From Candidatus Yanofskybacteria bacterium (GTDB lineage: Bacteria > Patescibacteriota > Minisyncoccia > 2-02-FULL-40-12 > IGHO2-01-FULL-4-A), in the NCBI GenBank assembly GCA_903897805.1, contig CAIUCV010000017.1, positions 5,725-69,724 of the forward strand: a stretch of 64,000 nucleotides of DNA. The letters are read 5' to 3'. The notes beneath the pieces are model-generated. The model saw only the letters and a program-made list of their open reading frames with translations, was not told the DNA's origin and did no database searches. How positions within the stretch are numbered: position 1 is the stretch's first letter; each line of letters opens with the position of its first letter. Positions 5,860 through 56,181 of the stretch are shown here, one piece after another. Both the position numbers and the translations under genes were made by a program.

Positions 5860-5912
5860 ACAAAGCCCCCAACGGGCTTTTTTAATTACGTGAATTATGA
5901 TAAATTTTTATT

Positions 5913-10165: not shown

Positions 10166-10178
10166 ATTATGCTATAAT
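10149..10178 (+). promoter_or_regulatory. Strong sigma70-like promoter (TTGACT, 18-nt spacer, TATAAT)
   Basis: Hexamers read directly. Drives the transcript carrying the 81-aa ORF; overlaps the thrS 5' end on the other strand. Confidence 0.55.
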
Positions 10179-10235
10179 TAAGGTGTGGGTTGAGAACCTT
10201 CGGGAACTCAAATCCAGCCCACAAAGGCGGAACAT

Positions 10236-10481
10236 ATGGCAGAGCTCTCTAAAGAATCTGTCACCAAAATCCTGCGCTTTATCCTGCGGGAGAAGCTGCA
10301 AAATGCCACCAACCCAATACTTCAAAGCGTGTGCGAGATGGCCAAGCTGGTCTCGGGACACGTTGCGGAAACGGCTCAAAACCGCCTCGCTCTTCTGGAA
10401 ATGGCTGAGGAGGAACTTCTTCGTATCCTCAAAGACCAGAAGGAACGGGCCGAGATGACACTAAAAGATCTGAGGAGTTGA
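10236..10481 (+). CDS. Small hypothetical protein (81 aa), standalone unit with its own promoter and terminator
   Basis: ORF bounded by the promoter at 10149 and the terminator at 10550; predicted helical and charged. Confidence 0.35.
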   Translation: MAELSKESVTKILRFILREKLQNATNPILQSVCEMAKLVSGHVAETAQNRLALLEMAEEELLRILKDQKERAEMTLKDLRS

Positions 10482-10549
10482 GCCGGAGTAATTCAGGGCA
10501 CCTTAAGTGGGCCCACGAGAACAAGAATCCGGTTTCACTCCCAGATCGC

Positions 10550-10585
10550 CACGGCCGCGCAGAGTATCGCGCGGTCTTTTTTATT
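10550..10585 (+). terminator. Rho-independent terminator
   Basis: ccgcgc-agagtatc-gcgcgg hairpin followed by tctttttt. Confidence 0.6.
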
Positions 10586-10592
10586 TTTGATG

Positions 10593-20583: not shown

Positions 20584-20678
20584 CTAAATAGCTTGTGATT
20601 TTTTCACAATCTATTCCTAAGAGAAAATTTTTACCCTTGCCATTTACGGCAAGGAGAGCAAGATTAACTCTTTTTTAT

Positions 20679-22154
<1,476 letters not shown>

Positions 22155-28646: not shown

Positions 28647-28727
28647 GATTTCTTTATATATGATAAAGCCGTTATAAATAGAGAGGCTTGCTTGGGTTTA
28701 GCTTCATCCTATCAGGTACCCCGACCA

Positions 28728-28736
28728 GTGGTATAA
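28728..28736 (+). promoter_or_regulatory. Extended -10 promoter element (TGgTATAAT)
   Basis: Read directly upstream of the 28775 start. Confidence 0.4.
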
Positions 28737-28774
28737 TATACGGTGGCGAATTAAAAATTAAAAAATATAACAAA

Positions 28775-35805: not shown

Positions 35806-36669
35806 ATGCCAAACTTAATTAGCCGAAAAATCAAAGATGAGTTGAACCAGCTAGGAATTGAACCCAAAAAATCGCTTGGGCAAAATTTTCTCATCAATGA
35901 AGGAATTTATAAAAAAATAGTCGTTGCTTTAGAGATAAAAAATAACGATATAATCGTTGAGGTTGGTCCTGGCTTGGGCACTCTGACCGGGTTTTTAGCC
36001 GAAAGCGGGGCCGAAATCATCGCCATCGAAAAAGACGGATTATTGACTGCCTACCTTAAAAATAAGTTCAAAAACAATAAAAATGTTACAATTATAGAAG
36101 GCGACATTTTAAAATTTAATCCCGTCGACTACCGATTACAAACTACCAATTACAAACTAGTCGGCAATATTCCCTATTACCTCACTTCGCGCTTAACAAG
36201 AACCGTTTTTGAAAAATGGCCTCGCCCCGAAAAAATCGTGCTGATGATCCAAAAAGAGGTCGCCCAGCGCATAATCGCCAAGCCGCCGGATATGAGTTTA
36301 CTTGCCGTTTCAGTTCAATACTATTCAGAACCGAAAATAATTAGTTACGTTTCCAGGAATAGTTTTTACCCGGCTCCAAAAGTTGACTCAGCGATTCTTC
36401 GGCTAGTTTCTAGTTTTCAGTTTCTAGCTTCTAGTAAAAAAACTAAAAACTCGCAACTAGAAACTAGAAGCTTCTTTCGGATTGTTAGGGCGGGCTTTGC
36501 GGGCAAAAGAAAACAACTGATCAACAACTTGGCAATGGGCTTGAAAATTTCAAAACAGGAAATTCAACAAAAGCTATCTCTCGTTGATATCAATCCCCAG
36601 CGTCGTGCTGAAACTCTAACTATTGAGGAATGGCAAAAAATTACAAACTCCTTATTTTCGCGGGACTAA
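35806..36669 (+). CDS. rsmA: 16S rRNA (adenine1518/1519-N6)-dimethyltransferase
   Basis: LGQNFLIN and EVGPGLG.LT SAM motifs. Confidence 0.9.
   Translation: MPNLISRKIKDELNQLGIEPKKSLGQNFLINEGIYKKIVVALEIKNNDIIVEVGPGLGTLTGFLAESGAEIIAIEKDGLLTAYLKNKFKNNKNVTIIEGDILKFNPVDYRLQTTNYKLVGNIPYYLTSRLTRTVFEKWPRPEKIVLMIQKEVAQRIIAKPPDMSLLAVSVQYYSEPKIISYVSRNSFYPAPKVDSAILRLVSSFQFLASSKKTKNSQLETRSFFRIVRAGFAGKRKQLINNLAMGLKISKQEIQQKLSLVDINPQRRAETLTIEEWQKITNSLFSRD
36403..36472. repeat. Nested tttctag / ctagaaa direct and inverted repeats, including a perfect 10-bp inverted repeat agcttctagt ... actagaagct, inside the ksgA CDS
   Basis: Read directly; in-frame and encodes SSFQFLASSKKTKNSQLETRS. Confidence 0.65.
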
Positions 36670-38256: not shown

Positions 38257-39240
38257 ATGTCGCAAAAACTCAAAATAATTCTCGGGGTTCTGATTCTGGC
38301 TGCCGCTTTTTTGGTCATTCGGGTGGGTTCTTCGTTTTACAGAAGCGCGAAAACCGCCGCTCTAATTTCGCAAATAGTAATTACGCCTGCGCCGGAAGAA
38401 AACCTTCTGACCAAAGACAGCGACAATGACGGAATCCCGGATTATTTAGAAGCCTACTATCGAACAGACCCGTTTAATCCCGACACCGATGGCGATGGCT
38501 ATCTTGACGGCGAAGAAATTGTCGCAGGGACCGATCCGCTTAAAAAAGACAGTCCTCCGGTTATCGCCGGCACTCAAAGCTCCAACGTAACCGATACGAT
38601 GATGAATAGGCTAGTTGCCGGCGTTTACTCCGGAGATCTTAATCCAGGAACGGGGGATAAGACAAAATATGATACCGGCGTGAATTCCCTAACCTTTGCG
38701 ACCATAGATGATGCCCTCAAGGCCCTGACGCCGAAACTGGTAGAAGGCACTATAGTAACGGACGATGATACCAAGCAAGCTAAAGAAAAATATTTGCAAA
38801 ACGTCTCCCATTTGCTTGAGGGCCCCTTTTTAGATTCATTTATGCAACAGCCGCAGACGATGAATAAGGCCGTTAACTTGTGGGCCAGAGGTGATTACGA
38901 CGGCGCCTCTAAGATCTTTGAGGATTTATCCCTGAAATTTACTACTGCCTATACCGAGCTTCTGACCCTGCCGGTTCCTTCCAGCTGGGTTGATTTTCAT
39001 AAAAATCTTCTCGCGACATTCCAAAAAATATCCGTTAACTATTCGGTGCTGTCCAGAACCGGGGAAGATCCCGTGCTGGCGATGACCGCCCTTAGTGACT
39101 TCTCCAACAATATGCTTGATATTGATTCGTCTTTATTGCAAGAGTTAAAACTATTGATACAAAAAGATAATTTGGAAATACCTAAAACGCCTCTTTTTGA
39201 AACATTGGACATCCTAAACAATAAATCATCAATTCAATGA
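38257..39240 (+). CDS. Membrane-anchored protein with thrombospondin-type-3-like Ca-binding repeats
   Basis: N-terminal TM; DSDNDGIPDYLE and DPFNPDTDGDGYLDGEE repeats. Confidence 0.6.
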   Translation: MSQKLKIILGVLILAAAFLVIRVGSSFYRSAKTAALISQIVITPAPEENLLTKDSDNDGIPDYLEAYYRTDPFNPDTDGDGYLDGEEIVAGTDPLKKDSPPVIAGTQSSNVTDTMMNRLVAGVYSGDLNPGTGDKTKYDTGVNSLTFATIDDALKALTPKLVEGTIVTDDDTKQAKEKYLQNVSHLLEGPFLDSFMQQPQTMNKAVNLWARGDYDGASKIFEDLSLKFTTAYTELLTLPVPSSWVDFHKNLLATFQKISVNYSVLSRTGEDPVLAMTALSDFSNNMLDIDSSLLQELKLLIQKDNLEIPKTPLFETLDILNNKSSIQ

Positions 39241-40295
39241 TAAACCCCGGTTTCAAGCTAATCGTTGCCGTAATCGCAATTAGCACCTTGCTTTTATTTC
39301 CCTTCGCTGTCGCCCGGGCGGCGGGCTCTATTATGTATATCTTAAAGGAATTCGGCTTGGATGTTGCCGCCAGAGTTATCACCAGAATGCTCGAAACAAA
39401 ATTAAGCGATGGCATGGTGAAAAAAATGCTGAAGCTCGGGCGGGGTGGAGGACCGGCTTTTATTCAGGATTGGAGGACCTTTTTGTCAACCGCTCAATAT
39501 AGAGGAGAAGATATTACAAGAGGGGTAATTGCCGATGCTGTTGACACAACCATTTGTCCATATATGGGGCCGTCTATTGCTAGTATATTCAACGCCCAAC
39601 TCCCCATCCCCGACCCGTATAAATATCGTGTAGACTCTCTCCAGTACTATAAATTGCGCAACCGATGTTCCTTGCCTTCCGGTCTTAACGTTGACGCATT
39701 CAGAAACGATTTTAACCAAGGCGGCTGGGAGGCGTGGGGAGAATTGATCCAGCCGCAGAATAATTTTTACGGGGTTTACGGAGATAGCATAAGCGAGTTG
39801 ACGAGCCAAAGAACATTTGAACAAGGCATTGATACGAGCGAGGCGATCTCGGGCAATGGCAATACTTCAGCAAGAGCACCTTGCGTGGGAGAAGGCATGA
39901 ATAAGCAATGTACGGTCATGGGACTAATAATCACTCCCGGAACCGTCTTTAGCCAAAACGAGGCGGCCACGATTAACAAGGAGATGGATTGGCTGATAAG
40001 CGCCGACGAGCTAAGCGAAGTTGTTGCGAATCTCACGACAAGCGTTCTCAGCCGTCTTGAAGATTATGCGGCCGGAGCCGTTCTCTCCGGACCAGCGGCA
40101 GGAAATAATTACGATGCCAGCGGAGCCTTGGGGCAAGCCAAGCAAGATTGCGTTAACTCTTGCATTGTCGCTAAGTGCCCGGCGGCTTTGGCTGCCTGTA
40201 ATATAGACACGAGCAATCGTCCCTGCGCTCCGGCTGATCCGGATCCCCGTGATGCCTGCGTATCAAGTTGCCAGCAGACCCAAGGATGCCAATAA
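39237..40295 (+). CDS. Secreted hypothetical protein with a Cys-rich C-terminus
   Basis: Signal peptide; C-terminal CVNSCIVAKCPAALAACN...CAPADPDPRDACVSSCQQTQGCQ. Confidence 0.55.
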   Translation: MINPGFKLIVAVIAISTLLLFPFAVARAAGSIMYILKEFGLDVAARVITRMLETKLSDGMVKKMLKLGRGGGPAFIQDWRTFLSTAQYRGEDITRGVIADAVDTTICPYMGPSIASIFNAQLPIPDPYKYRVDSLQYYKLRNRCSLPSGLNVDAFRNDFNQGGWEAWGELIQPQNNFYGVYGDSISELTSQRTFEQGIDTSEAISGNGNTSARAPCVGEGMNKQCTVMGLIITPGTVFSQNEAATINKEMDWLISADELSEVVANLTTSVLSRLEDYAAGAVLSGPAAGNNYDASGALGQAKQDCVNSCIVAKCPAALAACNIDTSNRPCAPADPDPRDACVSSCQQTQGCQ

Positions 40296-40317
40296 TGACA
40301 TTTAGCGATAAATAAGG

Positions 40318-42636
40318 ATGGCAAAAAAGAAATTATGTATCGCGGTAATATCTACAGTAATAATTTTACTGGCGGTTTTAGTTCCTCAACATCAGGCCAG
40401 GGCTGATGCCGTGACGGACATAGCCCAGCAAGCTAGCAGGTTAATTTTGGCAGGGGTTGGCAAAGCAGTCGCGTGGGCCGCTCAAGGGTTTGATGCATTC
40501 GTCCAGTACCAAACTGATAACGCTGTTTTTGGTGTAAAAGTAGTTGATGATAGTTGGGCAACAATCAGAGACTTCGTAAATCTGTTTTTCATTCTGATAC
40601 TTATAATTATGGCCTTCGGCACGATTTTTGACATCAAAGAATATACCTGGAGAGATATGCTCGTGCCATTTCTGATTGTCGCTTTGCTTATCAACTTCAG
40701 TCTTGTAATAGGCCAGTATATTATAACCGTCGCAAACGGTCTGGCCGGGATTTTTTTAAGGACAATGACTCAGGGTGGTGGCAGTATTTCTGAAATATTT
40801 GCTCAAGGATTTTCCCAGGTTGGTATTGTCTCCGCGACACCGCAAGCGGGCATACTTAAGCAGATGGCCACTGCGGTGTGGGATTCAACACCAATCGGTA
40901 TAGTGTTAAATGCAGCCAGCCCTCCAACCAGCGTCTTGCTAACTGCAATTTTTGGCATCATCTTTTTGGTGATCACGTTTCTTGCTTTCTTGTCGGCTTT
41001 TATTTTTTCATTAGCAAGGATTTTTGTTTTATGGTTCCTGCTGATTATTTCTCCTATCGCCTGGCTCGGCTATGCACTTCCGAACCTTAGGAAGCAAACT
41101 TGGAGTGAGTGGTGGAAACATTTCTTCTGCTGGTGCTTTTTCTTACCTTATTATTTATTCTTTTTAATGTTTGCTGTGATTTTTATAAAGAATCAAGCCG
41201 TTTTTAAGCCCGTCCCTGGTTCTGCCTCCATCACAATTGGTTCTATGACGCTTAATAATCTCCTTATTTATGGTATCAGCTTGATTTTTCTTATCGGCGG
41301 CCTGTTTGTAGCAAGAAAAATGGCTTGTGCAACCGGTTCCGGCGTGAAAACTGTTTTCGGCAAAATAGATGCGGGTGTTAAGAAATACATGCCGGGGGCG
41401 GCTTATGTAAGAGGCGCATGGGGGGGAGTGAAGGCAAGGGGTGAGGAGATCCAAGAAAAAGGAGTTCTAGGTATTGGCGGAGCCCAGCGCACTCGTATAG
41501 CTGAAGCTGGGATAAAAGGTTGGGTAGCTGGAATACCTGGCTTAGGCCGAGTACCTGGAGCGAGAGAAGAGACTAATAGAGTAAGGTTAGAGGAAATCAT
41601 TAAGAAAGAGGTTCCTAAATTGGCGTTGGAATTACAAAGACTTTCGGCGGACGAGCGGAAGGAGTTCCTCCAAAAAGCACAAGACAGGAAGGGTGTTGCG
41701 GGCGAAGCGGCTTTGCTTGAATATGCCAAGCAGGGCTATTCCACTAAGGATGACTACGTAAAAGCAATAGACAAATTTGGCGGTGAAAATACTGCTCTTG
41801 GCAGGCAGTATTTGAAAAATCTTGTAGAAGCTAACCTTAGAGATTTATTTAGTAGCTCTACCGAAGAGCTTGATATTGCCAGACCAACCGATCCCACTCT
41901 CTCCAACCTTAGGCGTGAACTCTGGAAAGATTTAGCAAAACGAAATCAAATTTCAAGTAAAGAAGATTATAAAATTGCCAAGGATTTGTTCTCCTCGACA
42001 CCAACCGAACTTAAATCATTTCTTGATTCCATCAAGCCAGAATATATTGTCGGCACTAAGGAAACTAGACAAGACGCTATTAGAAATAGAACTCTCGGCG
42101 ATACTGACCTCGAAAGAAAGCTGGTAGAGTTCATGAAGGACAAGAAAGAGATTAACGATGTGCGACTTAGACAAGAGGCATTGGCTATCGTGGACGGAAA
42201 GGATACTATCGAGGGTCGCAACATAATAAATGAGATTAATAAGTTCAATCCGGCAATAAACATTGAGGCCGACTTGCGAGAAGAAAGAGGCACTCCAGTC
42301 GATCAATCCCTCTCTACTGAGGACAATGACAGAATCGTCGGAGAAATCGCTGATAAAATTGCTGAAAAAGAATTCGCAGACTTGCGGAAAATGTCAAGTA
42401 AATTCTGGGAAGATAAAAGAACTCAGCGGGCAGTACGTCAAACTTTTAATGGAGGGGAGCTCACTCAATTGCTAGAGAACGCGCCTAAAGAAATGAGAAG
42501 GGCATTAAAAAATCTGCCTGGGGGTGGGTCTACTACAGCAGGGGACGGCGAAACAAGAAGACCGGCTGGCTTTGTCCCTTCGGGCTCAACGGTAACTCCT
42601 GAGGGACGGGTAATCCCACCGGAAGATAGATCTTAG
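40318..42636 (+). CDS. VirB6/TrbL-like polytopic membrane protein with a large C-terminal hydrophilic coiled-coil domain
   Basis: Signal sequence, then ~6-7 TM helices across residues ~90-330, then a ~430-aa charged domain; sits next to the VirB3/VirB4 genes. Confidence 0.55.
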   Translation: MAKKKLCIAVISTVIILLAVLVPQHQARADAVTDIAQQASRLILAGVGKAVAWAAQGFDAFVQYQTDNAVFGVKVVDDSWATIRDFVNLFFILILIIMAFGTIFDIKEYTWRDMLVPFLIVALLINFSLVIGQYIITVANGLAGIFLRTMTQGGGSISEIFAQGFSQVGIVSATPQAGILKQMATAVWDSTPIGIVLNAASPPTSVLLTAIFGIIFLVITFLAFLSAFIFSLARIFVLWFLLIISPIAWLGYALPNLRKQTWSEWWKHFFCWCFFLPYYLFFLMFAVIFIKNQAVFKPVPGSASITIGSMTLNNLLIYGISLIFLIGGLFVARKMACATGSGVKTVFGKIDAGVKKYMPGAAYVRGAWGGVKARGEEIQEKGVLGIGGAQRTRIAEAGIKGWVAGIPGLGRVPGAREETNRVRLEEIIKKEVPKLALELQRLSADERKEFLQKAQDRKGVAGEAALLEYAKQGYSTKDDYVKAIDKFGGENTALGRQYLKNLVEANLRDLFSSSTEELDIARPTDPTLSNLRRELWKDLAKRNQISSKEDYKIAKDLFSSTPTELKSFLDSIKPEYIVGTKETRQDAIRNRTLGDTDLERKLVEFMKDKKEINDVRLRQEALAIVDGKDTIEGRNIINEINKFNPAINIEADLREERGTPVDQSLSTEDNDRIVGEIADKIAEKEFADLRKMSSKFWEDKRTQRAVRQTFNGGELTQLLENAPKEMRRALKNLPGGGSTTAGDGETRRPAGFVPSGSTVTPEGRVIPPEDRS

Positions 42637-42642
42637 TATCAA

Positions 42643-43152
42643 ATGGCCCAAGACAACCAAAAATATTTTCAGTTCAGCCCATTTTTCATTGATTCAACAT
42701 TAATGTCGGACTTAGATTGGGACAAACTCCAAGACAAAATCGATAAGTTACCTATCGTTCTTGGCAATATTCTAACCAGTTATAAAACCTCGGAATTTAT
42801 AGAAATGTTAGCCCAAAAATATGTTCAGTTAGGCGTGCAATGGTCAGATATCGCCAGAATTGTCCGTGATGTGGTTTTGGCCGATATCTATATCGGTGAT
42901 ATGCCGGCGCAGATTTCATCAAAGCTCGGGGTTGACCAAAATACGGCTCTTGAAATAGCGAGAGCTATCGTCTCCCAGCTTTTCGCGCCGGTTATTGAGG
43001 ATATTAAAAAGTTGCAATTGCAAAAATTCGGAAAATTGCCCGGCTCAAGTGCGCCCCAACAATCTCCGCAAGCAAGACCACCGCAACATATACCAGGAGA
43101 AGAATTGCCGGAAACAGGGGGGAATATAATTGATTTGAGGAATCAAAAATAA
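42643..43152 (+). CDS. Hypothetical protein (169 aa)
   Basis: ORF only. Confidence 0.4.
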   Translation: MAQDNQKYFQFSPFFIDSTLMSDLDWDKLQDKIDKLPIVLGNILTSYKTSEFIEMLAQKYVQLGVQWSDIARIVRDVVLADIYIGDMPAQISSKLGVDQNTALEIARAIVSQLFAPVIEDIKKLQLQKFGKLPGSSAPQQSPQARPPQHIPGEELPETGGNIIDLRNQK

Positions 43153-43210
43153 AAAAGAACCTTTCGGTTCTTAATGGCTCTGAGGCCTAAAAATGGTGCC
43201 CCGGGGGAAT

Positions 43211-44284
43211 TCAAGAAGTTGGATGCAAGAAATCGTCTGCCAGAATACTGTAGCAATGCGAGAGCTCGGAACAATAGTTTACGTAATCAAAGTAGTTGCT
43301 CTCCCAGTTGATAAACATATTATCCGTGGCTAAAAGAGCGTAATAAGCAGCATTCCTCGTATCGCTGGCCACGGTAATAAGATCGTCGGGCATCCCAGAA
43401 AGGCCAGCAATTAAAGTGTCGGCATCGCGGCATACCCTATCAAAGCTGGCTCTTGCCTGATAACGAAAAATCGTTTCGGCAGTAGACTTGTCTCCCTTGT
43501 TAAAGTAAGACATTGCGTTATTATAGCAATCCATGCCTTTGCTATAGAGTTGGTGTAGGTTCTCAACTTTAATCAACATATTAATCCCACGAGCTAGCTG
43601 ATTTGCCAGATTCTTTTCTTCGCCTGACAGCGGATAATAGGCAGAAATAACATTAAAATCCTCCAGTTCTAAAATCTTAACTAAAAAGACTGGGAGTTTT
43701 AGATACTCGGGTACTAAATACGTGAGGCAAATGCGAATACGACTTCGCCCATCGGGAGTTATCCCATCAAAACCTGAACTGGAATCGTGATCAAAATTTA
43801 CATAGGTTTGCCAGAGTAGATTCACACTTTCAGTCTTGGCTATGATCTTTTTAAGCTCGGCCATCCCGGATACGCGTCGAGTTTTTTCAGAATAGATAAG
43901 CGGCTCAACCGGTGGGCGGTCTTCTTCCTCATCTTCTTCCTCATAATCTTCTCCATCGTCGTGATCTTCAACAGCGTCCAGGAGTTCCCGGTGTCGGCGC
44001 TCTTCGTTTTCCTCGCGTTCTCTACTGCTTTCAACCTCAACAACTCTTTCTGTAACTCCTGCCGTGCTAGATCTTTCTTCTGTTTTTACTACCGATGCTT
44101 TTGCCCCCGCGGCGATTCTTTCGGCCAAATCCTTGTTTTTAAGATAGTCTGCATATCCCTGCCTTTGCCCTTCTACGTATGTCCCTTCGGCACATATTAA
44201 CGAAAGACCGTCAGGTCTTGATCCCGAAAAGCCGACTTCGTAGCCTGCTAAGCGGCTTCTTTCTTCACCTTTCTTGTCAGCCAT
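43211..44284 (-). CDS. Hypothetical protein with an acidic D/E-rich tract, encoded divergently inside the T4SS-like cluster
   Basis: ORF; low-complexity stretch DHDDGEDYEEEDEEED. Confidence 0.45.
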   Translation of the reverse strand: MADKKGEERSRLAGYEVGFSGSRPDGLSLICAEGTYVEGQRQGYADYLKNKDLAERIAAGAKASVVKTEERSSTAGVTERVVEVESSREREENEERRHRELLDAVEDHDDGEDYEEEDEEEDRPPVEPLIYSEKTRRVSGMAELKKIIAKTESVNLLWQTYVNFDHDSSSGFDGITPDGRSRIRICLTYLVPEYLKLPVFLVKILELEDFNVISAYYPLSGEEKNLANQLARGINMLIKVENLHQLYSKGMDCYNNAMSYFNKGDKSTAETIFRYQARASFDRVCRDADTLIAGLSGMPDDLITVASDTRNAAYYALLATDNMFINWESNYFDYVNYCSELSHCYSILADDFLHPTS

Positions 44285-44407
44285 ATATTCCTTCTGTTGT
44301 TAAATAGCTGAATATGCCTATATTATACGCACTCCTAGGGTTAGTGTCAAGGGGGTTGGGGTGGTGTGCGGAGTGTTGAGATTGTGTGTGCTATTTGGAT
44401 GTTGTTT

Positions 44408-44416
44408 TGGTATAAT
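44408..44416 (+). promoter_or_regulatory. Extended -10 element (TGgTATAAT) upstream of the VirB3/VirB4 genes
   Basis: Read directly; preceded by an unusual GT-rich tract (44340-44400). Confidence 0.4.
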
Positions 44417-44445
44417 TTGTATATAGTCAAGTTGCGAAGCAAGCT

Positions 44446-44778
44446 ATGCGTTTTCAAGTTCCACAATTTATTGAGACGGAGAGCAAAATCGTCGGGCCGT
44501 TTACGCTCAAACAGTTTTTGTATTTGGCCGCCGGGGCGGTAATAATTTTCATTCTGCAATATGTTCTTAGTTTCACATATTTAATAATCGTTGGTACGCC
44601 AATTGCCGCCCTTGCCGCCGCTTTAGCTTTTTATAAAGTTGACGGCGTCCCGTTCCCACAATACCTATTGATGGCCCTATCGTTTCTAACCGGAACAAAG
44701 AAGTATGTTTTCAGCAAAGACCAAGGACAACAATACTTGCCGGAAAATAAATCCCAAGCATCAAATTCTAAGCCTTAA
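44446..44778 (+). CDS. VirB3/PrgI-like small membrane protein
   Basis: 110 aa; I.GPFTLKQF followed by two TM segments, as in Gram-positive VirB3-like proteins; immediately precedes VirB4. Confidence 0.6.
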   Translation: MRFQVPQFIETESKIVGPFTLKQFLYLAAGAVIIFILQYVLSFTYLIIVGTPIAALAAALAFYKVDGVPFPQYLLMALSFLTGTKKYVFSKDQGQQYLPENKSQASNSKP

Positions 44779-44788
44779 ACAAATTTCA

Positions 44789-45436
44789 ATGGCCAAACTG
44801 ACAAGGGAGCAAAAAGCGGTAAAGACAACTAGGGATTTTGTCCAAATCGCTGAAATTCGCGATACCGTTTTGGCGTTAAAAGACGGCTCGTTGAGATCGG
44901 TTGTTGAAATAGGTTCAATAAATTTTGAGCTGAAATCGGCAGACGAACAGGTTGCAATAGTCCAAGGGTTTCAAAACTTCATTAACTCTCTCGATTTCCC
45001 GCTTCAGATAGTGGTAAACTCACGCAAGTTGGACATTGAACCTTATTTAAAATCCCTTGAGGGGCTGACCGAAAGTTTAAAAAACGAATTGCTGAAAATC
45101 CAAGCCGTTGAATATACCAGATTCATTAAGGGCCTAACTGAATTAACCAACATAATGGCCAAGAAATTTTTTATTGTGGTTCCTTTTTACGCGATAGAGG
45201 CGGTGTCTCCGACCAAAGCCGGCTTTTTTGGCGCGATAAAAAGCGCGGTTATTCCGTCCAAGTTCGTAAAAACACTAACCGAAGAACAATTGGGAAATTA
45301 CAAAGTGCAGATAGGCCAAAGGATAGGAGTGATTGCTGAAGGGCTTAGCGGGCTGGGGCTTCAAACAAAAACTCTGGCGGGAGACGAACTTATGAATTTG
45401 TTTTATTCCTATTATAATCCCGGGGAACACCTATAA
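44789..45436 (+). CDS. VirB4/TraE-family ATPase, N-terminal fragment (split gene)
   Basis: F.QIAEIRD..L.L.DGS...VEIGSINFELKS..EQ matches the N-terminal region of Gram-positive VirB4 homologues. Ends at TAA 45434-45436, 2 nt before the next ORF, which is in another frame. The tracked ORF starts at 44705. Confidence 0.6.
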   Translation: MAKLTREQKAVKTTRDFVQIAEIRDTVLALKDGSLRSVVEIGSINFELKSADEQVAIVQGFQNFINSLDFPLQIVVNSRKLDIEPYLKSLEGLTESLKNELLKIQAVEYTRFIKGLTELTNIMAKKFFIVVPFYAIEAVSPTKAGFFGAIKSAVIPSKFVKTLTEEQLGNYKVQIGQRIGVIAEGLSGLGLQTKTLAGDELMNLFYSYYNPGEHL

Positions 45437-45438
45437 AT

Positions 45439-47220
45439 ATGGCGCTATTCGGCAGAAAACAATCAATCATCCCGACGGATATCCAGCCTAAAACGCTTGA
45501 TGATTTGCTAGCACCTTCGGCAATCAGCATTTCGTCAAACTACCTCCAGATAGGCAGCCAGTTTGCCCGCACGCTTTTTGTCGTAACTTACCCGAGATAT
45601 TTGAACACCAATTGGTTTTCGCCGGTCATAAATATGGACAGACCGATAGACGTTTCCATCTTCGTCCATCCGCAAGATACCGGGAACATTCTAAAACAGC
45701 TGAGGGACCGCCTCGGCAGATTAGAAGCTCAAGCGATGGAAGAGCAGGCAGCAGGCAAGGTAAGAGATCCGATACTGGAAACGGCGATTAATGACATCGA
45801 AATGTTGCGCGACAAGCTTCAACAGGGGACGGACAGGTTTTTTGAGCTGGGATTGTATATAACGATTTACGGTGATTCCACAAAAGAACTTGACGAAACG
45901 GAAAACAAAATAAAAGCGATCCTTGATGCTCAGCTTATTTATTCCAAGCAGGCGACTTTCAGGATGAAAGAGGGATTTTTCTCAACGATGCCCCTGAACG
46001 ATGACCAGCTTGCCGTCCACACTTCTTTAAATACCGAGCCCATTTCCTCGCTCTTCCCGTTTGTTTCTTACGACCTTACGGCTGATAAAGGGATACTTTA
46101 CGGAATAAACACCCACAATAACTCTCTGGTTTTGTTTGACAGATTTGCTTTGGAGAACGGCAATATGGTTGTCTTCGGCAAGGCCGGCGGGGGAAAAAGT
46201 TACGCCGTAAAACTGGAAATTTTAAGAAGCTTGATGTTCAGCACTCAGGTTTTTGTCATTGACCCAGAAAATGAATACAAGTTCCTGTCGGATACCGTGG
46301 GCGGGATTTCAATCAAGATATCTATCGCTTCGGACCAGCATATTAATCCTTTTGACTTGCCTGCGCCTCTGCCCGATGAGAGTCCGGCAGACGTTCTGCG
46401 CTCTCATGTATTGAATTTGCTCGGCTTGTTCAAAATTATGCTTGGCGCTCTCACTCCCGAAGAAGAAGCGATTCTTGATGAAGCCGTAAACCAGACATAT
46501 GCCCTAAAAGACATAACCTCGGCCACAACCGACCTTAAAAGCGCTACGCCGCCCTTAATGAGCGATTTGCAAAGCGTCTTGGAAGGAATGACGGGGACAG
46601 AATCATTAGCCATCAGAATCAAAAAATATACCGAGGGAAGTTTTGCCGGTTTCCTAAACAACCCGACCAATGTTCAGCTGGATAATCAGCTTATAACATT
46701 CAGTATCCGCGATATGGAAGAGGAATTAAGACCGATAGCAATGTATCTGGTCTTGAATTTCATCTGGACCCAGGTTAGGACCGAGCTCAAGAAGCGCATA
46801 TTGGTGGTTGACGAGGCCTGGGTGTTGATGAAGTATGAAGCTGGTGCGGCGTTTTTGTTCAATATGGCCAAACGTTGCCGCAAATACTTCTTGGGTCTTA
46901 CCACGATTTCCCAAGACATTCCCGACTTTATGTCTTCGCCGTACGGAAAGCCGATCGTTACCAACTCGTCGCTGCAGTTGCTTTTAAAGCAATCCACGGC
47001 GTCAATTGAGCTGGTAAAAAGCACCTTTAATCTCACGGACGCTGAAAAGTTCTTCCTCATGGAATCGCGTGTCGGGCATGGTCTGTTCTTCGCTGGCGCT
47101 AATCACGTCGCATTACGGGTCGTTGCCTCTTACGCGGAAGACCAGATAATAACCTCCGACCCCAGACAGATACTTGAGATAGAACAGGCCAAAAAGGAAT
47201 TGGCTCAACAAGCAACTTAA
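45439..47220 (+). CDS. VirB4/TraE-family ATPase, central and C-terminal fragment
   Basis: Walker A GKAGGGKSY, Walker B ILVVDEAW, GLTTISQD motif. Confidence 0.8.
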   Translation: MALFGRKQSIIPTDIQPKTLDDLLAPSAISISSNYLQIGSQFARTLFVVTYPRYLNTNWFSPVINMDRPIDVSIFVHPQDTGNILKQLRDRLGRLEAQAMEEQAAGKVRDPILETAINDIEMLRDKLQQGTDRFFELGLYITIYGDSTKELDETENKIKAILDAQLIYSKQATFRMKEGFFSTMPLNDDQLAVHTSLNTEPISSLFPFVSYDLTADKGILYGINTHNNSLVLFDRFALENGNMVVFGKAGGGKSYAVKLEILRSLMFSTQVFVIDPENEYKFLSDTVGGISIKISIASDQHINPFDLPAPLPDESPADVLRSHVLNLLGLFKIMLGALTPEEEAILDEAVNQTYALKDITSATTDLKSATPPLMSDLQSVLEGMTGTESLAIRIKKYTEGSFAGFLNNPTNVQLDNQLITFSIRDMEEELRPIAMYLVLNFIWTQVRTELKKRILVVDEAWVLMKYEAGAAFLFNMAKRCRKYFLGLTTISQDIPDFMSSPYGKPIVTNSSLQLLLKQSTASIELVKSTFNLTDAEKFFLMESRVGHGLFFAGANHVALRVVASYAEDQIITSDPRQILEIEQAKKELAQQAT

Positions 47221-47223
47221 ACT

Positions 47224-47673
47224 TTGGTTTGGCAAGCAATGGAATCAACCTCTGAACAACAATACCAATACGCTCTTGAAGAAGATCGGGCGCGCCAGCG
47301 CCTAGAAGCGGAGAGCTTGGCACAACAGCAGGGGTCCTCGCAAGACAAAATGGGATGGGGGATTTTCATTGTTGCCCTCATTTTAAGTTTAATAGCCGAC
47401 GCGGTTGAACTTATCACCGCAGGAACTCTTGGTTGGTTTGTGGGCCTGTTTATTGATTTGATATTGCTCGTTATGCTAGGATTTTCCAAGGCGGGAAGAA
47501 AACAGTTTAAAAAATGGATATGGGGACCCTTGATAGAAACAGTGCCGATTCTCTCCGCGGTTCCTCTCTTCCGTGTCGCTTTTCTGATTTGGGCATTTGC
47601 CTCCTCCCGCAGTAAAACACTTCGGGCAGTTTCTAAGGTAGCATCGGCTGGTTTGTCTAAGAAAGCGGTTTGA
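47224..47673 (+). CDS. Small membrane protein (149 aa)
   Basis: Two to three predicted TM segments, directly after VirB4. Confidence 0.45.
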   Translation: MVWQAMESTSEQQYQYALEEDRARQRLEAESLAQQQGSSQDKMGWGIFIVALILSLIADAVELITAGTLGWFVGLFIDLILLVMLGFSKAGRKQFKKWIWGPLIETVPILSAVPLFRVAFLIWAFASSRSKTLRAVSKVASAGLSKKAV

Positions 47674-47686
47674 TTCTTCGGCTCGT

Positions 47687-48778
47687 ATGGCTAAAAAAAT
47701 CACAATCTTTTTCGTATTCATCCTCGCCGCCTTGGCTATGTTTTTAGCCGGTTATTTAATCAGCAAAAAGTCGCTGACCGGCGGGCAAAACCAGCAAGCG
47801 TTAATAAATAATTCGCTAGTGTCCCGTTTTGAAGAATCGCCAGAGAAGCATGTTTCGCCAATTGGACTTTTCGCCCTTTCGCAAGACCGTGCCACCTTCC
47901 CCACGCTTTCGGCAGACGGAAAGGAAATTTTCTATTATAATCCCGACAGCGGAGAGATAAGGTCAGTGTCAACCCAAAATATGGCCGGCGGCTCAACACT
48001 GGCGGCAAAAATCCAGCCAGGTGCTCGCCAAATAAGCTGGGCTTCAAATAAAACTTTGGTTGCCACTTACTCCAACAACAGTATTTTTTACGACCTTAAC
48101 TCCAACTCTTCCAAAAAACTGGATAGCAAAATAAAAAATCCCGTCCTTTCAAGGGCGGGTGATAAGCTTGCTTACAACTACTTTGATACGGAAACGGGGG
48201 AGGGTAGCATAAGCATTGCCGACCCCACGGCAGAAATTTTCAAAACTCTCCTGTCCACCAGATTTGAAAACTGGCAAATTAGTTGGCTAAACAGCGATGT
48301 CCTATTTCTTGTCACGCGCCCCGCTTTAGGGAACTCTGTGTTTTCTCTTTTTACTCTGGACACTACAACCAAGGCTCTGCACGGCGTTCTTGATTCGAAA
48401 AACAACCTTGAAGTCGTTTGGTCGCCCAGCGGTCAGAAAATAGTTTATTCATATAGCATCGGCCCGGCCCAAGAAAGCGGTCTTTACTTTATGGATTTAG
48501 CTAATCGGGAGGAAGTAGGGCTGAATGCTACCCTCAACGCTTCCAAATGCACATGGAGCATTGATGATAAGACGATTTACTGCGCAGGGAAGGATTCGTT
48601 TGTTGTTCTGGACACTTCTTTGGCTAGTCCAATCCCTGAAAACATCCCGAACGTTCCGAAAGAAAACCTGGACAGCTCCGCCACCGCCACCAATTTATTA
48701 CTGACGAGCGCGGAAGATTACCTTGTCTTCAGAAATTCACAAAACGGAAAACTGTACGGTTTAAACTTAAACCGATAA
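47687..48778 (+). CDS. Membrane-anchored TolB-like beta-propeller protein
   Basis: Signal anchor, then repeated DG..I.Y / SP.G.K..Y propeller-blade motifs. Confidence 0.55.
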   Translation: MAKKITIFFVFILAALAMFLAGYLISKKSLTGGQNQQALINNSLVSRFEESPEKHVSPIGLFALSQDRATFPTLSADGKEIFYYNPDSGEIRSVSTQNMAGGSTLAAKIQPGARQISWASNKTLVATYSNNSIFYDLNSNSSKKLDSKIKNPVLSRAGDKLAYNYFDTETGEGSISIADPTAEIFKTLLSTRFENWQISWLNSDVLFLVTRPALGNSVFSLFTLDTTTKALHGVLDSKNNLEVVWSPSGQKIVYSYSIGPAQESGLYFMDLANREEVGLNATLNASKCTWSIDDKTIYCAGKDSFVVLDTSLASPIPENIPNVPKENLDSSATATNLLLTSAEDYLVFRNSQNGKLYGLNLNR

Positions 48779-48942: not shown

Positions 48943-49341
48943 CTACTTTGCCAAAAAGATGGTGGCGGTGACCAAAAGGTACGCCATGCCGATTAGGGCG
49001 GGGCCCACAAGCCCGTGAGTCCCCAGCTTTATGCAGCGTTCGGGGGGATCCTCATCCCTTCCCAGAAACAGCACAAGCAGGGCCGCCACAGCCGCCGCCG
49101 GGAAATCCCAGACAGCGAAAGCGTGTTGGAAACGGAGGTAACTCTCCACCGACTGGTAAATCGGTGGCAGTACTGCAACCCCCGCTACAAAAACGCTGCC
49201 AAACAACACCCAAAGGCTGGTTCGTACCAGCCCCCGGCCACCCAGTGGCCCTTCCGCCACCACGGGCATGACGAAGGCCAACATCACGACAAAACCCACC
49301 AGCTCAAACAAAATCAAACCAATTACAGAGATAGCCGGCAT
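48943..49341 (-). CDS. Hypothetical membrane protein (132 aa)
   Basis: Four predicted TM segments. Confidence 0.45.
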   Translation of the reverse strand: MPAISVIGLILFELVGFVVMLAFVMPVVAEGPLGGRGLVRTSLWVLFGSVFVAGVAVLPPIYQSVESYLRFQHAFAVWDFPAAAVAALLVLFLGRDEDPPERCIKLGTHGLVGPALIGMAYLLVTATIFLAK

Positions 49342-49806
49342 GGCTAGCTCCTTTCTCCCGCAATTATGGCTTGCGAGTAGCCGATTTGATGTAAAAGTGC
49401 GTATTTACTGGCCTACTTCAGGTTTCTTAGTATACCTTAATTATAGCAAAATATGGCTCTCTTGTCAAGCCCAAAATGGGGTCGCTTTGAATATCGCAGA
49501 AAAACATAAGTTTTAAGCCCTATTCCGGCCCAAAAACGATATAAGCTCTCTGATTTTTGTTATCCAGATAGCATAGAAAGTAGGGCCTGAGCGAGTCCCT
49601 ATCTAAGAAATTATTGATGATGACTTTGGTAACAAATAAGCGAGCGAGTAGCGGGAAACCTGCTCCCGCAGACCCTTTAGCCCCGCCTTTGGCGGGGTCA
49701 GCTCCATCAGGAGCTGAGGTTGAGGGAAAGGCAGGAGGGTTCCTGCGTTACTAGCGACGCTATATTTGTCAAAGTCGGAATACTGATTTCGTGATAGGGG
49801 GTCGCG
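49342..49806. ncRNA. Unassigned ~460-nt non-coding region with tandem GC-rich hairpins; candidate structured RNA
   Basis: No ORF on either strand. Hairpins gcggga/tcccgc, ccccgcc/ggcgggg, tcagctc/gagctga and gcagga/tcctgc at 49650-49750. Confidence 0.3.
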
Positions 49807-52810: not shown

Positions 52811-53155
52811 CTATTTGACTGGGTTGACAAAAATCGTGCCTATTGCGCTCGTTAGTTCGCTCTTGATTTCTCTAAAGGGTCTGCCTACGATACTTGGAGT
52901 AGCGACAAAAATTGCATCGAAGGGTTGTCCTTCTAAGCCGGCTGTCTTAAAAATTTCGGCTATCGTTCTCCGTAAACGATTGCGGACGGCGCTGCTTCTT
53001 GAAACCTTGGCCGGCACCAAAATCGCTAGGCGGCAGTAGCCGACCTGGTTTTCAGAAAATTTGATAAAGAAAAAACTGCCTTTTACAGTTTCTCCCTTTC
53101 TGAAAACATATTCAGAATCCTTCCTGGCTAAACGATGTTTTCTTGCTAACGCCAT
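52811..53155 (-). CDS. rnpA: Ribonuclease P protein component
   Basis: Basic ~114-aa protein (LARKHRL.RK..F..VF); rpmH-rnpA context. Confidence 0.88.
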   Translation of the reverse strand: MALARKHRLARKDSEYVFRKGETVKGSFFFIKFSENQVGYCRLAILVPAKVSRSSAVRNRLRRTIAEIFKTAGLEGQPFDAIFVATPSIVGRPFREIKSELTSAIGTIFVNPVK

Positions 53156-53475: not shown

Positions 53476-54846
53476 ATGACTAACGAAGAGCTTTGGAAGG
53501 CAGTATTAACCGAGATGGAGCTGGCCCTTTCACGGGCTAATTTCACTACCTGGTTCAAGGGTACGTCGCTTTTGGCTAATAATAGTGGGGCTTTGATGGT
53601 TAGTGCTCCTAATGGATTTGTTAAAGAATGGCTAGAAAACAAGTTTGGAAAACAGATTTTTCAGATTATAAGAAACTTGAGCCCGGAAGTGCGGGAAATA
53701 AAATATATCGTGGGCAACCTGCGTCCCGGATTGCCTTTTCAAAAGAAAGATTTGGTTCAATTCGTACCAGACAAAATCAGTGAAGAGTGCTCCGATGCCG
53801 ATATTGACAAGGCAACAAACTTAAACAAGCGTTACTCTTTTAATTCGTTTGTAGTCGGCCCAAGTAATGAACTGGCGTACGCCGCTGGTATCGCCATCAC
53901 TAAGAATTTGGGCAAGGTCTATAATCCGCTTTTTATCTACGGCGGGGTGGGATTGGGAAAAACACACTTGCTTCAAGCTACCGGGAATCTTGTCGCGGCC
54001 AGCTCGTCAAACAAAAAAGTGCTCTATATTCCGTCCGAGAGATTAACAACAGATATCATTGAGTCGCTTAAAAATAGAACAATTGAGGATTTGAAACAAC
54101 GTTATTTAAAATTGGACCTTTTAATAATTGACGACATTCAGTCCATCGCCGGCAAAAAGGGGACGCAGGATATATTCTTTGCGACGTTCAACGAGCTTTA
54201 CGGTAAAAATAAGCAGATAATACTTTCCTCTGACCGACCGCCAAGCGCAATACCGGCGCTGGAGGAACGCTTACGCTCCAGGTTTGAGGGCGGGATGATT
54301 ACCGATATAATGCCACCGGACTATGAAACAAGACTTGCGATCTTGAAACTAAAGAGCAAAGAAAAGAATTTTGAAATTGACAATAATTCTCTGGCTTACA
54401 TAGCGTCTAACATCCAAAAGAATATCCGCGAACTGGAGGGTGCCTTGAATCGCATAATAGCTTTCAGCCAGGTGTATAGTAAAATTCCAGATTTCAAGGA
54501 AGTAAAAAAACTTCTGGCCGCTTATCTAAATACCCCATATCGTAAAACGACGCATCAATTGATACTCAAATCGGTCGCCGATTTCTACGGTATATCCTTA
54601 AGCGACCTTGTAAAAAGGAGCCGGAAGAAAGAAATAGTAAAACCGAGACAAATAGCAATGTTTTTATTGCGGGAAGAAACAAAATCGTCATTCCCTGAAA
54701 TAGGTTCCAAGCTCGGAGGGAGAGACCATTCCACCGTAATTCACGCTTATGAGAAAATTAAAAAAGAAGAAGAGGGAGACGAGACCATAAAACAAGAATT
54801 GGTTTTAATTAAAGAGAGGATTTATCAAACGTTTGAAAACGTTTAA
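53476..54846 (+). CDS. dnaA: Chromosomal replication initiator protein DnaA
   Basis: AAA+ Walker A GGVGLGKTHL, LLIIDDIQ, and C-terminal DNA-binding helix-turn-helix (DHSTV). Confidence 0.95.
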   Translation: MTNEELWKAVLTEMELALSRANFTTWFKGTSLLANNSGALMVSAPNGFVKEWLENKFGKQIFQIIRNLSPEVREIKYIVGNLRPGLPFQKKDLVQFVPDKISEECSDADIDKATNLNKRYSFNSFVVGPSNELAYAAGIAITKNLGKVYNPLFIYGGVGLGKTHLLQATGNLVAASSSNKKVLYIPSERLTTDIIESLKNRTIEDLKQRYLKLDLLIIDDIQSIAGKKGTQDIFFATFNELYGKNKQIILSSDRPPSAIPALEERLRSRFEGGMITDIMPPDYETRLAILKLKSKEKNFEIDNNSLAYIASNIQKNIRELEGALNRIIAFSQVYSKIPDFKEVKKLLAAYLNTPYRKTTHQLILKSVADFYGISLSDLVKRSRKKEIVKPRQIAMFLLREETKSSFPEIGSKLGGRDHSTVIHAYEKIKKEEEGDETIKQELVLIKERIYQTFENV

Positions 54847-55092: not shown

Positions 55093-56181
55093 ATGAAGAT
55101 AATAATAAATCACAATAAGCTACTGACGGCTCTACGGATTGTAGAAAGAATCGTTTCAAGAAATGTATCATTGCCAATTCTAAGTGCAATCCTCCTTAGG
55201 ATTGAAAATGGACGCTTAAAACTATCAGCGACAAATCTGGAGATCGGCATTAATTATTGGGTTGGCGCAAAAGTGGATGAGGATGGAGAAGTTGCCGTTC
55301 CGGCTCGCGTTTTTTCAGATTTCATCAGTAATATTACTGATGAAAAAGTAATTATTACGACGAATAAAAATATAATTTCAATTAATTCTGAGCACTACAA
55401 GACTCAAATTCTAGGCATGGAAGCTAAAGATTTTCCGATAATCCCGAAGGTCAAAAAGGAAACGTCATTTAAAATTAACAGTCAGGCGCTGAAAACCTCA
55501 TTAATCAGCGTTTCGGATTCTATATCTCTTTCGGAAACCAGACCGGAGTTGAGTGGTGTATATGTTAATATCTCAAGTAACAAAGCCGAGTTTGCAGCAA
55601 CCGACAGCTTTCGTTTGTCCGAAAAAATTACCGTTCTAAAAGAAGGGGTAAATAAAGCAGTTATTATTCCCCGCAATGCCATAGTTGAGATTGTAAGGAT
55701 GCTGGAAAACACCGATGAAGAAATTAATGTAGCTATTTCCGAAAACCAAGTTTTTCTTTATAATGACGACTTTGAATTTGTCTCGCGTTTGATTGATGGC
55801 CGTTATCCCGACTACAAAAAAGTAATTCCAGAAAAATTTATATCCCTCGTCAAGGTTAACAAAGGGGAATTTGAAAGAAACGTCCGATTGGCCAGTATTT
55901 TCTCATCAAATATATCCGACGTCAGGATAAAGACCGCAAAAGATTCAATGGAAGTTTCGGCCAAGAATAGCGACTGCGGTGACATTACATCGCACCTGGC
56001 CTGCGAGTTAAAAAACAAACCATTTGAGATTTCGGTTAATTACCACTATCTTCTCGACGGGCTTAAAGTGATACCAACGGAGAATGTAATCGTAGAGTTT
56101 ACCGGCGAGGGCAGTCCATTGGTGCTTCGGGGCGACGATCTTAAAGACCAAACTTACGTTATAATGCCCTTAAGGAGTTAG
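55093..56181 (+). CDS. dnaN: DNA polymerase III beta sliding clamp
   Basis: Directly follows dnaA; ~360 aa with the three-domain clamp pattern. Confidence 0.9.
   Translation: MKIIINHNKLLTALRIVERIVSRNVSLPILSAILLRIENGRLKLSATNLEIGINYWVGAKVDEDGEVAVPARVFSDFISNITDEKVIITTNKNIISINSEHYKTQILGMEAKDFPIIPKVKKETSFKINSQALKTSLISVSDSISLSETRPELSGVYVNISSNKAEFAATDSFRLSEKITVLKEGVNKAVIIPRNAIVEIVRMLENTDEEINVAISENQVFLYNDDFEFVSRLIDGRYPDYKKVIPEKFISLVKVNKGEFERNVRLASIFSSNISDVRIKTAKDSMEVSAKNSDCGDITSHLACELKNKPFEISVNYHYLLDGLKVIPTENVIVEFTGEGSPLVLRGDDLKDQTYVIMPLRS

Follow-up and report, generated by a model that had tools for sequence, protein, structure and literature searches.

The DNA analysed here is a stretch of 64,000 nucleotides from a contig of Candidatus Yanofskybacteria (CAIUCV010000017.1), which we call the window; coordinates are positions within it, and the searches for gene content covered its open reading frames (ORFs). 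At 38257-48778 it carries a compact gene cluster that is very probably an ordinary copy of the non-conjugative, monoderm MPF_FATA-type chromosomal type IV secretion system (T4SS) of the Patescibacteria, in the reduced form of the Yanofskybacteria lineage. The majority of these ultra-small bacteria carry such a cluster close to the origin of replication. Four of its genes in the window encode the cytoplasmic-membrane core of such a system, i.e. a VirB6-like protein, PrgI/VirB3 and a VirB4 that is split into a TrsD-like protein and an ATPase. Together with five accessory genes they make up a module of nine genes on the same strand, the order of which is kept across the Paceibacteria, between uvrD-ksgA and the jag-yidC-rnpA-dnaA origin region. 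An earlier, sequence-only reading of this DNA had also recognised a Gram-positive-style T4SS core among the housekeeping genes of a reduced genome and had thought a conjugative element unlikely. Our analysis agrees with it on both points; the core is of the MPF_FATA type and the genome is one of the Candidate Phyla Radiation.

The number of ORFs in 38257-48778 was given as eleven, and those itemised below are nine on the plus strand and one, g5, on the minus strand. Nine of the ten ORFs reported in the sequence-only reading were recovered as given there; the tenth, taken for a single VirB4 gene at 44789-47220, proved to be two ORFs. The description of the locus as ten consecutive co-directional genes, an acidic protein included, had to be abandoned as well, since the 357-amino-acid (aa) product of g5 is encoded on the minus strand by a lineage-specific insert. 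The stop codon of g1 overlaps the start of g2. The genes are as follows.

38257-39240, plus strand: g1, 327 aa, predicted surface protein anchored in the membrane, with TSP3 repeats (calcium-binding) followed by a C-terminal domain without a database match
39237-40295, plus strand: g2, 352 aa, predicted secreted protein with a conserved core of undefined fold (aa ~33-285) and a variable Cys-rich tail
40318-42636, plus strand: g3, 772 aa, putative extended VirB6-like channel subunit with a signal peptide, ~5 transmembrane (TM) helices and a C-terminal alpha-solenoid (aa ~415-735)
42643-43152, plus strand: g4, 169 aa, predicted to be soluble; helical N-domain, Pro-rich linker and C-terminal motif N-[IV]-[IV]-D-L-R-N
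43211-44284, minus strand: g5, 357 aa, acidic; lineage-specific insert outside the conserved module
44446-44778, plus strand: PrgI/VirB3-like small membrane protein, 110 aa, Pfam PF12666
44789-45436, plus strand: TrsD-like protein, the VirB4 N-terminal domain as a separate gene, 215 aa, partial NCBIfam matches
45439-47220, plus strand: VirB4 ATPase, C-terminal two-thirds, 593 aa, NCBIfam conju_CD1110
47239-47673 (open from TTG 47224), plus strand: g9, 144 or 149 aa, small membrane protein with three predicted TM segments
47687-48778, plus strand: g10, 363 aa, membrane-anchored TolB-type (PD40) beta-propeller, predicted to be extracellular

The VirB4 ATPase matched the NCBIfam model conju_CD1110 with an E-value of 4.1e-105 and 352.7 bits (cut-off 325), covering only profile positions 186-733 of 752. 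In Pfam it matched P-loop_TraG (1.2e-21) and CagE_TrbE_VirB (9.7e-6), and the Walker A motif GKAGGGKS and the Walker B motif VVDEAW, both noticed in the sequence-only reading, are present at 46177-46200 and 46804-46821, respectively. At E <= 1e-10 the protein database contained 7,775 VirB4 homologues. Among the best 120 matches, which were 69-95% identical, the proteins with a named source were labelled Yanofskybacteria, Paceibacterota, Parcubacteria, Minisyncoccia, Patescibacteria group or plain 'bacterium', and public annotations name the VirB4 homologues 'conjugal transfer protein TraC'.

The TrsD-like ORF upstream of the ATPase ends with a TAA at 45434-45436, and the ATPase ORF begins two nucleotides later, at 45439, in a different frame; given this stop and frame change at 45434-45439, a single VirB4 ORF was rejected. 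In NCBIfam, the 215-aa TrsD-like protein matched positions 95-233 of 894 of VirB4_plasma (9.2e-9), positions 12-118 of CD1110 and, weakly, the TrsD model (1.3e-4), while the precomputed Pfam match for an identical gene was to PF26593 (TraC-like). Its residues 14-213 align with residues 5-202 of P0020, a fused VirB4 of 786 aa, at 46% identity (E 5e-60), and the ATPase picks up from residue 210 of the same protein. Because they are colinear with this fused homologue, the two genes together can be read as one VirB4 cut at the linker. Nearly all close VirB4 homologues have about 590 aa and span about 72% of the concatenated TrsD and VirB4 query. TrsD and VirB4 were separate in 79 of 82 related loci, with both ORFs intact where split, and fused in the other three, so the split is a conserved gene structure and not damage. 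A sequencing error or a pseudogene as its cause was likewise considered and rejected, given this conservation and the colinearity with fused homologues.

The fused form belongs to a minority lineage (L003, at 5185-7545, L004 and L023), in which TrsD and VirB4 make one protein of 786 aa; L003 also fuses g1 and g2. In some close VirB4 homologues, of about 1,240-1,257 aa, the ATPase is interrupted by an intein that bears a LAGLIDADG homing endonuclease (PF14890, PF14528); these are the database proteins P0011, P0015, P0063, P0064, P0071 and P0083 and the gene at 9001-12774 of locus L087. The VirB4 of the window has no intein.

The 110-aa protein was identified as PrgI in the sequence-only reading, and its match to Pfam PF12666 (8.1e-11, 42.8 bits, cut-off 27, profile positions 2-90 of 91) bears this out. 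The public annotation of the source contig omits PrgI and instead calls an overlapping TrsD of 243 aa from 44705. Alignments of homologues favour the PrgI gene and a TrsD start at 44789 over the public calls.

The product of g3 begins with a signal peptide and contains about five hydrophobic helices, the last of which is followed by a K/R-rich stretch. TrbL-type domains were detected in five of the 40 g3 homologues from related loci (four PF04610, best E 1e-4, and one PF19597), and about 22 of 111 database homologues matched PF19590, PF04610 or PF19597. Structure prediction had been proposed for this protein and for g2; the AlphaFold model of g3, built from 46 sequences, had a mean pLDDT of 84, whereas that of g2 was poor (pLDDT 56, pTM 0.23). 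A polytopic membrane domain with a modelled VirB6 fold, encoded alongside virB3 and virB4, supports the assignment of g3 as VirB6-like. Its C-terminal ~320 residues were modelled as many short helices, like solenoids of the HEAT/ARM type, and the coiled coil that had been proposed for this extension was rejected. By the positive-inside rule, the K/R-rich stretch behind the last hydrophobic helix points to an N-out/C-in topology and thus to a cytoplasmic solenoid.

To see how far this arrangement is conserved, we compared 84 related loci from genomes and metagenomes, belonging to Yanofsky-, Azam-, Portnoy-, Moranii-, Giovannoni-, Nealson- and Sungbacteria. Of the relatives that bear a name, Candidatus Yanofskybacteria and Paceibacterota (Parcubacteria group, Patescibacteria) are the closest. 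The synteny check suggested in the sequence-only reading gave a clear result: the order uvrD-ksgA-(lnt)-g1-g2-g3-g4-PrgI-TrsD-VirB4-g9-g10-(polysaccharide flippase)-jag-yidC-rnpA-dnaA-dnaN, with its nine-gene module, was constant in the 84 loci. Presence was counted with iterated profiles, only in loci with enough flank (51 or 63). By this count g1 was present in 46 of 51 loci, g2 in 43, g3 in 50, g4 in 48 and PrgI in all 51, while g9 was found in 34 of 63 loci, always directly behind VirB4, and g10 in 59 of 63. Wherever present, the genes counted kept their strand and their order. The five accessory genes are co-conserved with the core across the Paceibacteria.

In 50 more distant Paceibacteria loci, the VirB4 of which is at most 62% identical to that of the window, VirB4 and the propeller gene are separated by genes with an SLT domain (VirB1-like, PF01464 23.5 bits) and a weak resemblance to pilins. 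A hidden Markov model of these genes had no match in the window or in the Yanofskybacteria-type loci L001-L023, and with Pfam and NCBIfam no SLT, CHAP or lysozyme-type domain was detected in any protein of the cluster. The window carries a minimal version of the cluster, since the SLT and pilin-like genes of the distant loci were not found there.

Among the accessory proteins, g1 contains the TSP3 repeats that had been recognised before (Pfam TSP3_bac, 8.8e-16, 57.9 bits, cut-off 25) and a single N-terminal hydrophobic segment at aa 5-23. The g2 protein has a signal peptide and a core with four conserved Cys, and its C-terminus is Cys-rich, as had been claimed, with eight Cys within the last 60 residues. 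No Pfam or NCBIfam match was obtained for g2, and two profiles searched against PDB sequences found no relative; in ten long g2 relatives, Pfam recognised TSP3 repeats only. The family is nevertheless a large one, with 4,714 clusters (at 50% identity) among 1.84 billion representatives at E <= 1e-3. Fusions of g1 and g2 were seen in L003 and in the database proteins P0264 and P0392. In the L003 fusion, residues 16-146 match a g1 profile built without L003 (i-E 2e-11) and the remainder matches the g2 profile; in P0264 and P0392 an N-terminal TSP3 repeat is joined to the g2 core.

The g4 protein has no predicted TM segment, no Pfam or NCBIfam family and no PDB match. Its motifs were taken from an alignment of 34 homologues, in which a conserved 'SP[FY]' upstream of an internal Met favours a length of 169 aa over the public call of 149 aa. 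For g9, the start at ATG 47239 agrees with the starts of its homologues, and the alignment of 38 homologues shows an invariant Asp in TM1 and an invariant Pro. None of the 38 members matched any Pfam family, TrbC/VirB2 and T4SS_pilin included, at E <= 0.05. We considered g9 as a VirB2-like pilin and rejected this for want of Pfam support in the 38 members; no small pilin-like ORF was found in or near the cluster.

A TolB-like beta-propeller had been proposed for g10, and this holds at the level of the family. Searched against the PDB, a profile of 37 homologues found TolB beta-propellers at E-values of 1e-16 to 6e-14, profile positions 82-283 corresponding to TolB 146-350. With the single sequence, the PD40 and TolB matches were sub-threshold (TIGR02800, 18.9 bits against a cut-off of 343). 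The protein has one N-terminal TM segment and two C-terminal Cys, of which C288 is invariant and C299 nearly so. We read g10 as a TolB-type propeller domain and not as TolB, because only the propeller aligns, the N-terminus looks like a TM anchor without the TolB N-domain, and neither tol nor pal occurs in the vicinity. A location at the cell surface is suggested for g1, g2 and g10 by single hydrophobic segments at the N-terminus and by conserved pairs of Cys.

The minus-strand gene g5 does not belong to this module. It was found in none of the 84 related loci, nor in L086, whose VirB4 is 95% identical to that of the window, and was rejected as part of the secretion system because neither the 84 loci nor the closest relative contain it. 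The sequence at 44350-44322 is a perfect 12/12 match to a sigma-70-like promoter (TTGACA-17-TATAAT), and 43172-43155 forms a terminator-like hairpin; g5 has no Pfam or NCBIfam family. A scan of metagenomes found a single homologue, in L088 (a groundwater contig), which is 56% identical and has the same position, next to a nearly identical PrgI. Lying on the opposite strand with promoter-like and terminator-like sites of its own, and missing from the 84 loci, g5 is best described as a self-contained, fast-evolving insert specific to one lineage.

Further genes of this kind were seen around the cluster. Between the propeller and flippase genes, a 132-aa ORF (within 48943-49468, minus strand) encodes four predicted TM segments and has a GC content of 0.58, against about 0.45 for the window; upstream of it, at 49468-49440, is another perfect 12/12 promoter match, with a TG extension. 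This ORF was found in none of the related loci and had no Pfam match, and it is probably another strain-specific insert. In L086, a gene of the 23S_rRNA_IVP family (2582-2947) is inserted between lnt and g1. In L088, a 124-aa gene (571-945) directly follows PrgI and, by the look of its sequence, is putatively of the GxxExxY/PD-(D/E)xK type. The intergenic sites of the operon seem to tolerate insertions.

The cluster is surrounded by genes of the chromosomal core. Landmarks on either side are ksgA (35806-36669), rnpA (52811-53155), dnaA (53476-54846) and dnaN (55093-56181), and all other genes of known function in the 64 kb are housekeeping genes: gyrB, nusG, rplK, tmk, thyX, gatB, miaA, thrS, dnaE, nusB, rnc, rpsP, trmD, 16S rRNA, rnhB, gap, transketolase, UDG, PBP1, tyrS, ruvC, yebC and ruvB. 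The GC content is uniform, that of the cluster being equal to that of the rest of the window. The sequence-only reading had reported no relaxase, VirD4-type coupling protein (T4CP) or VirB1/SLT hydrolase among the ORFs of the window; we found none either, nor an integrase. The bacterial 16S rRNA gene (20673-22152, Rfam 1416 bits) is complete and apparently stands alone, as neither 23S nor 5S rRNA was detected in the window. An ORF of 741 aa (28688-30913, plus strand), flanked by the transketolase genes and the gene for uracil-DNA glycosylase, had no Pfam match at E <= 0.001.

Three other explanations of the locus have to be weighed. That VirB4 best matches conjugation-type families (CD1110, the Mbov_0397 family of integrative and conjugative elements, TraC) and has homologues annotated as TraC would suit an integrated conjugative element or plasmid remnant, mobile or recently acquired. 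The presence of a full conjugative element would have overturned the assignment made in the sequence-only reading, but no relaxase, integrase or T4CP was found in the 64 kb. The cluster also has the same chromosomal position and the same flanks in 84 loci of many candidate lineages and the GC content of its surroundings, and the phylogeny of VirB4 follows taxonomy, inter-class transfer being rare (PMC12102498). An integrated element is thus effectively excluded, and its probability is minute. Equally improbable is a system in decay. The TAA and frame change at 45434-45439 that break VirB4, together with a foreign-looking gene that has its own promoter between g4 and PrgI, on the opposite strand, could be taken as signs of a pseudogenised cluster. 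The break, however, falls at a domain boundary and is colinear with fused homologues, it recurs in 79 of 82 loci with intact ORFs on either side, and a separate TrsD is the most abundant T4SS component in Patescibacteria (PMC12102498). Moreover, in the related locus L001 the TrsD-like protein and VirB4 are 71% and 83% identical to those of the window, in comparison with 56-63% for KsgA and UvrD; VirB4 is conserved as well as DnaA (80%), or slightly better. The reading as decay is effectively refuted.

A DNA-uptake machine is a more serious candidate. In this case a T4SS-derived importer, like ComB of Helicobacter or the archaeal Ced, would supply an organism that cannot synthesise nucleotides with DNA or nucleotides scavenged from its host. 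Reviews have suggested this (PMC11665869, PMC12857230), and T4SS loci of the class ABY1 lie alongside comF, recG and radA (PMC12102498). The lack of a relaxase and coupling protein in the window fits it too, as does a weak match of VirB4 to the archaeal DNA-import ATPase CedB (3.9e-12, 45.6 bits). The CedB score is, however, far under the cut-off of 700, whereas that of the conjugation-type model CD1110 was reached, and the window contains no com genes. In Southlakia epibionticum, competence needs ComEC, yet deletion of comEC leaves viability unaffected while the T4SS is essential, so the essential role of the T4SS in that species is not ComEC-linked DNA uptake. We consider DNA uptake unlikely; it is in any case a sub-case of the explanation we prefer, which it narrows as to substrate and direction.

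We therefore return to the non-conjugative Patescibacteria T4SS. Since its place in the chromosome is fixed and neither a relaxase nor a coupling protein or integrase was found close by, the transport of macromolecules in episymbiosis, rather than DNA conjugation, is its most likely function. By analogy with R388 and Gram-positive T4SSs, a VirB4 hexamer with its separate N-domain, tethered by PrgI, would energise a channel lined by VirB6. Because no coupling protein is encoded nearby, a substrate or partner could dock on the presumed cytoplasmic solenoid of the VirB6-like protein, and g4 might, speculatively, take part in such docking. It can also be speculated that the TSP3 protein g1, the Cys-containing g2 and the TolB-type propeller g10 form an extracellular part that touches the cell wall or the surface of the host cell. 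Such a machine would move proteins or other macromolecules, derived from or directed to the host, across the envelope during episymbiosis, either by export of proteins or by import of host macromolecules.

Several points weigh against this explanation. The VirB6 assignment of g3 depends on a structural model and on sequence signals that are weak or transitive. In the sequence-only reading g3 was called VirB6/TrbL-like, and the TrbL domains of homologues and the model speak for this, but g3 itself had no match at E <= 0.1 in Pfam or NCBIfam, TrbL models included. When Foldseek was run with the g3 model, TrwI had the top probability in the list (0.93), with an E-value that was not significant. 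The orientation of the solenoid is based on a crude hydropathy count and the positive-inside rule, and the roles proposed for g1, g2, g4, g9 and g10 on conserved synteny and predicted localisation alone. No substrate, effector or pilin gene was identifiable in the window, and the genome may have a coupling protein or relaxase outside the window. Essentiality, finally, is known only from a Saccharibacterium whose cluster differs from that of the window in having a pilin array and hydrolases.

A further proposal, which we put forward tentatively and regard as possible but doubtful, is that the five accessory genes (the TSP3 protein g1, g2, g4 with its docking-type C-terminal motif, the 3-TM g9 and the anchored propeller) belong to the structure of a T4SS peculiar to the Paceibacteria. 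Pilins, VirB8 and VirB1 would in that case be replaced by a surface module of proteins that bind Ca, are stabilised by Cys or form a propeller, and the VirB6 solenoid would stand in for the coupling protein, for contact with the host or the capture of nutrients. If true, this would define a new structural subclass of T4SS.

The T4SS of Patescibacteria is among the small number of envelope machines conserved in a vast radiation that is largely uncultivated, and it is essential in the sole species tested. The locus described here adds no new kind of system; it gives a compact nine-gene version without pilins or hydrolase and shows the minimal conserved set of the machine. What it contributes is incremental: a set of five accessory genes that are conserved along with the core and two of which are fused in other genomes, and a Yanofskybacteria-type clade without the VirB1-like gene of 50 distant loci. 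The five accessory genes are concrete candidates for structural, co-purification or knock-down work.

The kind of system to which the locus belongs has been surveyed by Quinonero-Coronel et al. (2025, PMC12102498), who found VirB4 in 2,417 of 3,035 Patescibacteria genomes, as a monophyletic clade nested in MPF_FATA. In their survey the commonest neighbour of VirB4 is TrsD, which is homologous to the N-terminus of VirB4; PrgI/VirB3 and VirB6 are also found near VirB4, and relaxases are nearly absent; VirD4-like genes are common in Patescibacteria but distant from virB4, and genes for VirB2-like pilins, present near virB4 in 1,135 assemblies, are not universal. In Paceibacteria, the T4SS lies close to dnaA, dnaN, rnpA, rpmH and ksgA. 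Like the systems of this survey, the cluster of the window has a core of VirB4, a separate TrsD-like gene, PrgI/VirB3 and a VirB6-like protein, and it lies at the Paceibacteria site near dnaA, dnaN, rnpA, rpmH and ksgA, likewise without a relaxase. Nothing essential differs, although the cluster has no adjacent gene for a VirB2-like pilin or a VirB1-like protein. Neither TSP3 nor PD40/propeller families are mentioned in the main text of PMC12102498 or in a part of its supplementary files, and to that extent no description of the accessory set g1, g2, g4, g9 and g10 was found there. The statement in the sequence-only reading that the apparatus is 'effectively undescribed' was thus overstated: within the same limits it can stand for the accessory proteins, but the core, the TrsD split and the position are described in PMC12102498 and essentiality in PMC10633639.

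Functional data for this kind of system come from a single member, the T4SS of the Saccharibacterium Southlakia epibionticum (SEML1_0006-0019), the genes of which Wang et al. (2023, PMC10633639) showed to be essential for growth as an epibiont. Reviews call the function of the Patescibacteria T4SS unknown and speculate on the delivery of effectors or uptake from the host (PMC11665869, PMC12857230). The S. epibionticum cluster is, like that of the window, chromosomal, of the Gram-positive type and near the chromosome start, and it has no recognisable coupling protein or relaxase. Unlike the window, this member of the Saccharimonadia has an essential array of VirB2-like pilins and genes for a peptidase and lysozyme beside virB4.

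With the conjugative T4SSs of the MPF_FATA type (Prg of pCF10, Trs of pGO1, CD1110 of CTn2, and pIP501) the cluster shares a VirB4 of the CD1110 type, PrgI and a polytopic protein of the PrgH/VirB6 type. TrsD of pGO1 has its counterpart in the window, and components of an outer-membrane core are missing in both. In contrast to these systems, the window lacks a relaxase, a T4CP (PcfC/TraJ-type), a VirB8-like protein (PrgL/TraM), a VirB1-like hydrolase (PrgK/TraG) and an adhesin (PrgB), and its cluster, which resides in the chromosome and is inherited vertically, comes with other accessory proteins at the surface. In comparison with the inner-membrane channel or stalk subunits TrwI/VirB6 of R388 and DotA of Legionella, to which its sequence is only 10-12% identical, g3 has an additional predicted C-terminal alpha-solenoid of ~320 residues and would thus be an 'extended VirB6', with no VirB5 partner. 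Taken feature by feature, the locus fits the published T4SS of Patescibacteria, a system that was already described in 2023-2025.

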